A stretch of 33,174 bases of DNA from an uncultured archaeon (GTDB lineage Archaea > Asgardarchaeota > Lokiarchaeia > Sigyniarchaeales > SOKP01), in NCBI GenBank assembly GCA_964525635.1, contig CAZGJX010000042.1:1-33174 (forward strand), written 5' to 3'. The notes below the pieces were generated by a model. It was given only the letters and a program-made list of their open reading frames with translations. It did no database searches and was not told the origin of the DNA. Within the stretch, counting starts at the first letter, position 1. Each line of letters starts with the position of its first letter. The translations under genes and the position numbers were made by a program. Below, in pieces: positions 9,936 through 11,479 of this stretch.

Positions 9936-11183
9936 ATGGTTAGGAATAAACTCGATATTGGAATGTTTACATGCATGTACAGTCAGATGAATGGATCAGC
10001 TCATGCAACAAGATTCTTAAGTGAAGCTCTTGCTGAATTAGGACATAATGTGCATGTTTTTGCTCCACGTATCATGAATGGATATGAAAAACCAAAGAAT
10101 TTGCATTTCCATGATTTAGGGGGTGCAAGGGTTGCAAAAAAAACGGGTTTAGTCCTAAGTGTTCCAATACAAAAAATTTTCAAATGTGATGCTGATAGCT
10201 TAGATATTGCACATATACAAACTCATGCTTCAATCGGAGTTTTAGGAATAAACTGGGCAAAAAATTTAGGATGTCCCATGGTAGGATCACATCATAGTCC
10301 TATGAATTTTTATACTTCTCAATATGTTCCTATTATTGGAAAATTATTAGTAAGAAATGATTTAATTTGGAGGTATGAACGTTTTATCTTAGATAAGTAT
10401 GATTTATGTCATACCCCAACTAAAACTAAAAAAGAATTGCTTCTAAATCATAAATTTAAAGAACCAATTATCGCTCTTACGAATGGTATAAGAGAATTTT
10501 ATTTTAAGGATGTAAAAGAAAATGGAATTCGAGAAAAATATGATTTAGTTGATAAAAAAGTGCTATTATATGTTTCAAGATTATCTCCTGAAAAACATCC
10601 CGTAAGAATTATGAAAGCTTTTAGAAATATTCATAAAAAAGTCCCTGATGCTCACCTTTTACTTGTTGGAAGTGAAGGCCCCTCAACAAAAGCAGTTGAA
10701 AAAATAGTTCATAAAAAAGAATATAATGAGTTTGTTTCTTTTGCTGGTAGAGTTCCTTTTGAAGATTTATTAAAATTATATAATACAGCAGATTTAAGTT
10801 GTTTATGGTCTTGGGTTGAAGCAGAAGGATTGGTTCTTTTAGAAGCTATGGCTCAAGGAACTCCAAATGTTGGTGCTAATGCAAGTGGTATATCTAACGT
10901 TATTAAACATGGAGAAACAGGTTATCTTGCAAATAATTTAGGAGAATTTGAAGATTACGTCGTTAAATTACTAAAAGATGATGATTTAAGAGAACAATTT
11001 GGAAAAAATGCTAAAAAAGTAGCTAAAACATATAGAATTGGGGAAGTAGCAAAAAATTGGATAGAAATCTATAAATTTACACGGGAATCTCTCTTTCCAT
11101 TAAGATATTACAGAAAAGAACGAAAAAGGAGAGTTGAATTAGTAAAGGAGTTCACCCAACAATTTCCTAATGTTCATTTCTAG
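9936..11183 (+). CDS. GT4 family glycosyltransferase (diacylglycerol glucosyltransferase-like)
   Basis: NG.A....L..AL.ELGH.VHVFAP, HIQT, VSRLSPEK, EAEGLVLLEAMAQGTP (EX7E motif). Confidence 0.9.
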   Translation: MVRNKLDIGMFTCMYSQMNGSAHATRFLSEALAELGHNVHVFAPRIMNGYEKPKNLHFHDLGGARVAKKTGLVLSVPIQKIFKCDADSLDIAHIQTHASIGVLGINWAKNLGCPMVGSHHSPMNFYTSQYVPIIGKLLVRNDLIWRYERFILDKYDLCHTPTKTKKELLLNHKFKEPIIALTNGIREFYFKDVKENGIREKYDLVDKKVLLYVSRLSPEKHPVRIMKAFRNIHKKVPDAHLLLVGSEGPSTKAVEKIVHKKEYNEFVSFAGRVPFEDLLKLYNTADLSCLWSWVEAEGLVLLEAMAQGTPNVGANASGISNVIKHGETGYLANNLGEFEDYVVKLLKDDDLREQFGKNAKKVAKTYRIGEVAKNWIEIYKFTRESLFPLRYYRKERKRRVELVKEFTQQFPNVHF

Positions 11184-11192
11184 AATCTTTAA

Positions 11193-11365
11193 GTGAACTA
11201 CACACCACCTAAAGGTTGTGGCTTCCTACGAGTACACAATCGCTTCTACTACGGGTTGGTCTGTTTTTCGTAGAAAACCATTCCATCGTAATTGGAATGA
11301 TTCCTCGTTCACGGAGGGTTCATGTGATAAGAAGTTGATTTTTTTATTATAGTCAACTTCCTTAC
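11193..11365 (-). ncRNA. putative TnpB omegaRNA/reRNA-like scaffold at the element right end
   Basis: Stems at 11331-11360, 11276-11302, 11244-11275; ACGAG/CTCGT pairing (11304-11308 with 11228-11232); GTGAAC (11307-11312) complementary to terminal GTTCAC; TATA-like TTTTTAAG at 11387-11395. Confidence 0.55.
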
Positions 11366-11479
11366 TACTACATTAGCATAGAATTACTTAAAAAAGGAGA
11401 GAGTCTAATAGATTATTGACTTTTCTTCAAACTCAATTCATCAATTCCCTAAAGGGAAGTGTTTTCTTGAGTAATCATG
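11193..11479 (-). mobile_element. non-autonomous IS200/IS605-family miniature element, 287 bp, no tnpA/tnpB
   Basis: Minus strand: target TTAT (11480-11483), left-end guide AAAA (11462-11465) then hairpin CACTTCCC-TTTA-GGGAATTG; right-end guide GAAG (11222-11225) then hairpin CCACAACC-TTTA-GGTGGTGTG, ending TAGTTCAC (11193). Guide/cleavage pairs obey the IS608 pairing rule; no TIRs or TSD; GC-richer than flanks; lies between two convergent stop codons. Confidence 0.85.

Follow-up and report, generated by a model that had tools for sequence, protein, structure and literature searches.

The window analysed here is a stretch of 33,174 nucleotides from an uncultured Asgard archaeon (Sigyniarchaeales; assembly GCA_964525635.1, contig CAZGJX010000042.1), and our subject is a 287-bp gene-less mini-element within it, which is predicted to carry a stand-alone guide RNA (omegaRNA) for the transposon-encoded protein TnpB. 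The source genome is a 4.45-Mb assembly of 245 contigs with 26.8% GC and a marker completeness of 100%, in which the window is contig C42. The mini-element (11193-11479, on the minus strand, as are all of its parts given below) lies between two convergent genes. One is a GT4-family glycosyltransferase (GT4) gene on the plus strand (9936-11183; Pfam Glycos_transf_1, E = 3.3e-37), and the element lies 9 nt past its stop codon TAG (11181-11183); the other is a peptidase M54 (archaemetzincin-like) gene on the minus strand (11485-12294 in the open reading frame (ORF) list; Pfam Peptidase_M54, E = 2.2e-21), the stop codon of which, TAA (11487-11485), stands directly 5' of a TTTAT motif (11480-11484) that precedes the left end of the element. 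The GT4/M54 gene pair was also found in three congeners, and comparison of the orthologous loci revealed an empty junction in all three, which indicates a lineage-specific insertion. Junctions of the filled allele are bridged by contigs of four separate salt-marsh metagenome runs (X3-X6); in the contigs of these runs only filled junctions and no clean empty allele were seen. A joint 11146->11500 in X4 was considered as an empty allele and rejected: it is off the element boundaries, has a side of 29 nt and many mismatches, and is taken to belong to a relative.

The mini-element is an IS200/IS605-type (IS1341-like) deletion derivative. Its left end (11432-11479) consists of the terminal 20 nt, a hairpin TTCCC-TTTA-GGGAA (11458-11445) and the sequence GATGAATTGAG (11442-11432). 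A TATA-like box, TTTTTTAAG (11387-11395), follows, and 26 nt downstream of it starts a 5' hairpin (11330-11361), in which GGAAGTTGA (11361-11353) pairs with TCAACTTCT (11338-11330) through eight Watson-Crick pairs and one G-U pair. Next come a relic of tnpB comprising the last 38 codons and the TAG stop (11226-11342; TnpB residues 397-434, E = 4.5e-10, 68% identity) and the core of the predicted omegaRNA scaffold, a GC-richer block of 125 nt with five helices and a pseudoknot (11193-11317). The nested stems of the scaffold are formed by CCTC (11317-11314) with GAGG (11306-11303), by CATTCC/GGAATG within 11299-11279, by a long bipartite stem (11278-11221) and by the right-end subterminal hairpin CCACAACC-TTTA-GGTGGTG (11203-11220), whose five modelled pairs all have compensatory changes. 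The 5' strand of the pseudoknot, GTGAAC (11307-11312), sits in the loop of the CCTC/GAGG hairpin; its 3' strand, GTTCAC (11193-11198), forms the last six bases of the right end, the same in all copies, and is directly followed by the predicted 20-nt guide TTAAAGATTCTAGAAATGAA (11173-11192) in the variable flank. All of the minus-strand features listed in the initial annotation, from the TATA-like box through the hairpin, the nested stems and the GTGAAC/GTTCAC pair to the right-end hairpin and flank, are thus present. The tnpB tail has no start codon, so it is not an expressible gene, and the other ORFs inside the mini-element are confined to the plus strand and reach at most 44 amino acids. 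A 228-nt stretch of this region has a minimum-free-energy fold of z = -2.9, with 0 of 200 shuffles folding equally well.

A repeat search of the source genome with the same stretch gave 17 matches. Seven of the own-genome copies are mini-elements of about 287-288 bp with 76-88% identity and unrelated flanks, and the similarity between copies ends right after GTTCAC on one side and right before TTTAT on the other. When the copies are aligned, identity falls to 0.35-0.38 immediately past GTTCAC. When 16 complete copies from this genome and three congeners are compared, 14 have the motif TTTAT directly 5' of the left end; its identity is 1.00 in the own-genome mini-elements and 0.96 in 11 representatives, whereas the outer flanks are at the background of 0.35-0.38, the one beyond TTTAT at 0.36. 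This conservation makes TTTAT the likely target or transposon-adjacent motif (TAM), one base longer than the TTAT proposed in the initial annotation. No target-site duplication flanking the copies was found by eye. The subterminal hairpins at both ends have TTTA(G) loops, and the ends are asymmetric and lack terminal inverted repeats. Two own-genome mini-elements (C9:3401-3665 and C153:6819-7088) share GATGAATTGAG, the hairpin and the scaffold, and have another outer left end (…AAAAAATACT.AGTACTGTT…); they may be chimeric or represent a second left-end subfamily. Shorter truncated remnants are found on contigs C31, C36 and C94.

The origin of the mini-element can be traced to a full-length tnpB element. 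Three full-length loci in the same genome (C50:1-1484 and one each on C1 and C19) share only the last ~140 nt with the mini-elements, and each contains an ORF of 390-450 codons that ends about 108 nt into the shared part, carries the Pfam domains HTH_OrfB_IS605, OrfB_IS605 and Cas12f1-like_TNB, and matches ISDra2 TnpB with E = 3.7e-14 over residues 7-389. Genuine tnpB genes with a homologous right end, for which the initial annotation had called, therefore exist beside the mini-elements; two of them are intact (C50:148-1449 and C1:93813-95114), and the third (C19) has an in-frame TAA. The identity of the window scaffold is 84% and 82% with the intact genes' scaffolds and 88% with that of the interrupted gene (G000:C19:42147-43442, minus strand), which is the nearest of the three; the nearest-looking effector gene is thus probably dead. 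The full-length left ends have the same left-end hairpin and GATGAATTGAG, followed by a TATA-like TTATATTTAA about 27 nt before the tnpB start codon ATG, and TTTTTTAAG of the mini-element aligns with TTATATTTAA. Further downstream, the 5' arm of the 5' hairpin aligns with the tnpB start region (GGAATGTTGC...), after which the alignment jumps to the codons ...DFLSH PSVNEESF... close to the gene's end. In the mini-element, therefore, the left end, promoter region and first six or so codons are joined to roughly the last 45 codons and the right end. The 3' arm of the hairpin is made of the deletion junction and the start of the retained 3' part of the gene. Both ends of the mini-element align with the full-length elements on C1 and C19; in the C50 copy the right end and the left-end hairpin with GATGAATTGAG align, and the outer left end looks degenerate. 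About 1.15 kb of tnpB was deleted, the retained 3' part corresponding exactly to the predicted omegaRNA scaffold, and the mini-element is a protein-less derivative of a tnpB-only (IS1341-like) element in an Asgard (Promethearchaeota) archaeon, similar to a palindrome-associated transposable element (PATE) or a miniature inverted-repeat transposable element (MITE). The loss of the proteins with retention of promoter region and scaffold, which had been suggested from the window alone, is borne out as an internal deletion of a tnpB element. Position and homology suggest that TTTTTTAAG has promoter activity.

We examined the scaffold as a conserved structured RNA. A covariance model, R1, was built from 11 own-genome copies (alignment A3); it scores the window copy at 164 bits (E about 3e-33) and finds 42 matches among 80 TnpB-homologue loci from other genomes, every one of them at the 3' end of tnpB. 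The matching loci come mostly from Asgard metagenome-assembled genomes (MAGs), and also from methanogens, Thermoplasmatota, Bathyarchaeota and two bacterial MAGs. On the TnpB-linked alignment 92.3% of cells are paired, compared with 70.6% after column shuffling and 38-45% when the columns are slid by 1-3 positions; 34 of 40 pairs have changes on both sides, and the 296 double-change cells (86 expected) were reached by 0 of 500 shuffles. Since this first alignment had been fitted to the model, the analysis was redone on 12 TnpB-linked ends that were aligned with plain MAFFT and folded by RNAalifold; 23 of 39 predicted pairs show compensatory changes there. The stems therefore covary in both analyses, a test that the initial annotation had put forward. 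In the same 12 ends RNAalifold predicted no helix upstream of the scaffold that would be the counterpart of the 5' hairpin in the full-length elements; the hairpin is specific to the mini-elements, and it spans the deletion junction.

The proposed pairing of GTGAAC with GTTCAC as a pseudoknot is supported: 96.3% of cells are paired, and swaps occur at three of the six pairs (19-223, 24-218 and 20-222). In one group of elements the loop reads TTGAAG and the end CTTCAA (GC to UA and CG to GC), and one sequence combines GCGAAC with GTCCGC (pair 20-222); the swaps represent a small number of events, because few lineages carry them, but the covariance model had not been built to contain them. The first choice of RNAalifold, a nested helix of an upstream TGAAC with the terminal GTTCA, was rejected, being paired in 74% of cells and having one pair in 11 of 39 sequences. 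The geometry resembles that of the ISDra2 omegaRNA, whose 116-nt scaffold comprises four stems and in which -5 to -3 are paired with -105 to -103 (PMC10097598); the corresponding positions here are -6 to -1 with -120 to -115. In the full-length genes the pseudoknot loop lies in coding sequence, where GTGAAC encodes Val-Asn of PSVNEE (window 11318-11301; alignment A1, columns ~430-440) and the TTGAAG variant gives PSLKEE. The loop being both coding and covarying, the conserved TnpB tail is probably dictated by the RNA.

The TnpB clade of the candidate partner in trans occurs widely in Asgard MAGs that carry the labels Promethearchaeota, Odin-, Hod- and Hermodarchaeota. An alignment of 18 homologues shows no variation at D196, D378 and the zinc-finger cysteines (CxxC...CxC); the position of the canonical RuvC-II glutamate is occupied by an invariant glycine, G285 (IIVG.L), and a glutamate 59 residues downstream, E344 (RIDE), is invariant as well. 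RuvC-II-rearranged TnpBs are predicted to have their active site completed by an alternative glutamate, and they are presumably active (PMC10691335). The protein encoded here shows, at the level of its sequence, the pattern of such RuvC-II-rearranged (RIIr-type) TnpBs. It is very improbable that the RNAs serve instead a nuclease-independent, TldR-like RNA-guided regulator as exapted guides: the glycine in place of the canonical RuvC-II glutamate throughout the clade would fit this idea, but E344, both aspartates and the zinc finger are kept, which is the published signature of rearranged, presumably active TnpBs, the proteins are encoded inside mobile elements with variable flanks, and nowhere else in the genome is there an exact match to the guide.

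At 16 nt the guide matches the genome exactly only at its own locus. When up to two mismatches are allowed, many matches turn up in this genome of 27% GC; a single one of them follows TTTAT and is taken as chance. The guide is complementary to the 9-nt spacer 3' of the GT4 gene, its TAG stop and its last codons, and so is indeed antisense to the 3' end of the GT4 mRNA, as had been pointed out; we regard this as a by-product of where the element landed. A regulatory effect in cis, by antisense transcription into the GT4 3' end or by a hairpin terminator between the convergent genes, is suggested by this complementarity and by the position of the element, 9 nt past one stop codon and directly after the other with its TTTAT. 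We consider it improbable, as the other copies lie in unrelated contexts with unrelated flanks, the congeners manage without an element at this junction, and the conservation pattern holds nothing specific to this locus.

The best explanation of these data, and in our opinion a fairly probable one, is that the mini-element, a deletion derivative of a tnpB element, yields an RNA from the retained promoter that is loaded by TnpB in trans to cut the empty donor joint. The retained tnpB promoter would produce an RNA of ~170-190 nt that starts near the 5' hairpin (about 11365) and runs through the scaffold into the flank. TnpB from the C50 or C1 copies, the two intact genes of the cognate type, would bind this RNA in trans, and the complex would cut DNA consisting of TTTAT and TTAAAGATTCTAGAAA..., the empty donor joint left on excision; the exact donor joint is expected to read TAATTTAT with TTAAAGATT immediately after it. 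By repair from a filled sister copy the element would then be regained, according to the homing/retention model of Meers et al. In bacterial IS605 elements recombinational repair after cleavage restores the element (PMC10055086).

A bolder version of this proposal, to which we assign a low probability, is that the mini-element has become a selected, self-contained guide-RNA gene, in which the tnpB transcription start is fused almost directly to the scaffold, the junction hairpin defines or protects the 5' end, no TnpB-mediated mRNA processing is needed, and the spread of the element provides a few RuvC-II-rearranged TnpBs with many guides. If that were true, the seven copies here and the dozens in a congener would amount to a dispersed multi-guide repertoire, a state resembling a CRISPR array that was reached by transposition.

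Several observations weigh against guide function in trans. No match to Y1 TnpA (PF01797) was found in the source genome, for all its 245 contigs and 100% marker completeness, and the own-genome copies are mutually 12-24% divergent; on both grounds excision may have ceased, and a homing guide would then have nothing to cut. The sequence upstream of the TATA-like box is not obviously similar to a transcription factor B recognition element (BRE). The own pseudoknots of the two intact TnpB genes each have one mismatch, so that the activity of these TnpBs is not assured. An orthologous mini-element insertion is present in the congeners G003 (L155:1499-1793) and G001 (L130:198-492), with flanks 97% and the element 91% identical; its scaffold differs by 4.3%, close to the adjacent intergenic DNA, and its left half by ~13%. 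Since this scaffold diverges about as much as intergenic DNA, purifying selection on stand-alone scaffolds is not demonstrated; the conservation pattern along the element suggests constraint. The divergence of the left half may reflect gene conversion of that half or relaxed constraint.

These points are in keeping with the chief rival, an inert relic, that is, a decaying non-autonomous transposon whose scaffold is spared only along with the right end and which has no useful transcription and no use of TnpB. The absence of a TnpA match from the genome, the old, divergent copies, the further truncated remnants, and the scaffold of the G001/G003 ortholog all speak for it, and so does the pairing in the mini-elements by themselves (21 sequences from four genomes), which at 94.2% is barely above the 92.5% of shuffled alignments, with 10 pairs showing double changes; the small margin is due to the little variation among these copies. 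The distribution of conservation points the other way. The copies are most alike in the tip of the left end, in GATGAATTGAG (identity 0.88-0.91), in both arms of the 5' hairpin (0.81-0.96) and, at 0.81-0.83, in the scaffold, and least alike in the 5' hairpin loop (0.52-0.64) and the spacer (0.55-0.71); the TATA-like box is moderately conserved among the mini-elements (0.68-0.78), and the hairpin arms, though conserved, carry G-C/A-U/G-U variants. The higher conservation of arms and scaffold over loop and spacer is what would be expected if hairpin and scaffold matter. Transposition needs just the subterminal hairpin and the cleavage site, yet the 125-nt scaffold, a pseudoknot partner 115 nt upstream and the hairpin arms are all better conserved than spacers and loops. 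Moreover, the same deletion architecture, with promoter region and scaffold kept, has been multiplied to dozens of copies in the congener G002, and stand-alone omegaRNAs are reported to be functional in trans in other organisms. On balance we hold the inert relic to be a doubtful explanation that nevertheless deserves to be taken seriously.

How the mini-elements are mobilised can be addressed in the congeners. Intact Y1 TnpA genes are present in G002 (one) and in G003. In G002, a 3.4-Mb genome, the scaffold has at least 80 matches and the left half specific to the mini-elements at least 40 copies, many of them at contig ends (e.g. L183-L189). At the left end of the TnpA element of G002 (L177, G002:C109:12380-15175, about 1320-1470; TnpA gene at C109:13880-14248) there is a hairpin, GCCACGTCC-TTTAG-GGCGTGG with GATGAAT behind it, which is nearly the same as the right-end hairpin of the mini-elements; no R1 scaffold was found in the short stretch of this element at hand. 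The tnpB next to this tnpA has a canonical IIIEDL RuvC-II motif and accordingly represents a different TnpB subfamily with look-alike ends. Mobilisation of the mini-elements in trans by a TnpA of this kind is a reasonable inference from the hairpins. TnpA in cis was considered and rejected, as none of four TnpA loci examined in relatives has an adjoining R1 scaffold; in the genome G006 the TnpA matches and R1 matches listed fall on different contigs. The right-end hairpin of the mini-element could serve both as the DNA hairpin of a TnpA-type transposase and as the last stem of the omegaRNA. In G002 the mini-element also appears to cause assembly breaks at many contig ends, and of the tnpB family described here only N- and C-terminal fragments, located at contig ends, were seen.

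The initial annotation had regarded the cassette as the strongest candidate for a new system in the window. This view has to be given up, since trans-acting stand-alone omegaRNAs and PATEs that encode omegaRNAs have already been described (PMC10691335, PMC10055086). Stand-alone omegaRNAs are described as mobilised, lacking effector and transposase, located beside effector loci and working in trans (Altae-Tran et al. 2021, as summarised in PMC10691335); the omegaRNAs that PATE elements often encode need TnpB from other IS copies in trans (Meers et al. 2023, PMC10055086). As far as the summary in PMC10691335 describes them, the cassette resembles stand-alone omegaRNAs in having no effector or transposase, in sharing a genome with effector loci and in taking its guide from the flank, and differs from them in its Asgard host, an effector clade with glycine in RuvC-II, the retention of the tnpB TATA region and start, and a 5' hairpin that spans the junction; it is known here from sequence. 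Like the PATE-like IS200/IS605 elements of Geobacillus stearothermophilus (PMC10055086), it is gene-less and has ends homologous to those of tnpB elements; those elements, however, are bacterial and have a cognate TnpA in the same genome, whereas here a TnpA element with a matching hairpin was seen only in a congener. The omegaRNA of ISDra2, or right-end element RNA (reRNA) (PMC10097598, PMC8612924), likewise overlaps both the 3' end of tnpB and the right end, with a scaffold of about 116-125 nt and several stems, a pseudoknot between guide-proximal nucleotides and a site ~100-115 nt upstream, and a TAM of 5 nt (TTGAT in ISDra2, TTTAT predicted here). Unlike in ISDra2, the TnpB is distant and has a rearranged RuvC-II, the pseudoknot has 6 bp and lies in a hairpin loop, and there is no detectable similarity between the RNA sequences. 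Because every sequence-level feature of the described classes that can be compared was found, we assign the cassette to the known stand-alone omegaRNAs and PATEs. It reveals no new mechanism; specific to it are the Asgard host, the effector clade with glycine in RuvC-II, a deletion architecture that is resolved exactly, and the junction hairpin.

The cassette provides a clean and comparatively supported Asgard example of a stand-alone TnpB guide RNA whose deletion architecture is exactly known, together with a covariation-backed structure model of the omegaRNA for a TnpB clade in which the RuvC-II glutamate is replaced by glycine. The model can be used for annotating the many similar GC-richer islands in the AT-rich genomes of this group, the scaffold boundaries will be of use should this compact TnpB clade be tried as an editor, and the copies lend themselves to studying how guide-only elements come to outnumber effectors.

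A scan of the whole window with Rfam gave no family at its gathering score, and no tRNA or tmRNA was found when these were looked for. In a permissive scan HgcC (RF00062) was the sole Rfam model that aligned near full length on the right strand (11183-11306, minus); with 11.9 bits against a gathering score of 50 and E = 2.2, the scaffold is not an HgcC member by the Rfam criterion. We take HgcC-type archaeal RNAs to be linked to tnpB, in which case the sub-threshold match may hint at a kinship of this old archaeal family of 'high-GC' RNAs with omegaRNAs.

Cas1 was considered as another possible mobiliser; the genome has a single Cas1 gene (G000:C197:2623-3513, minus strand, L203), which is unlinked to these elements. 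Asgard Cas1-associated TnpB transposons have a GTTCACTCA motif downstream of tnpB (PMC10691335), which recalls the GTTCAC end described here. In the window, the M54 peptidase gene is adjoined by a gene for a presenilin-family protein (12502-13515, plus strand; Pfam E = 4.1e-27), in line with typical Asgard gene content.

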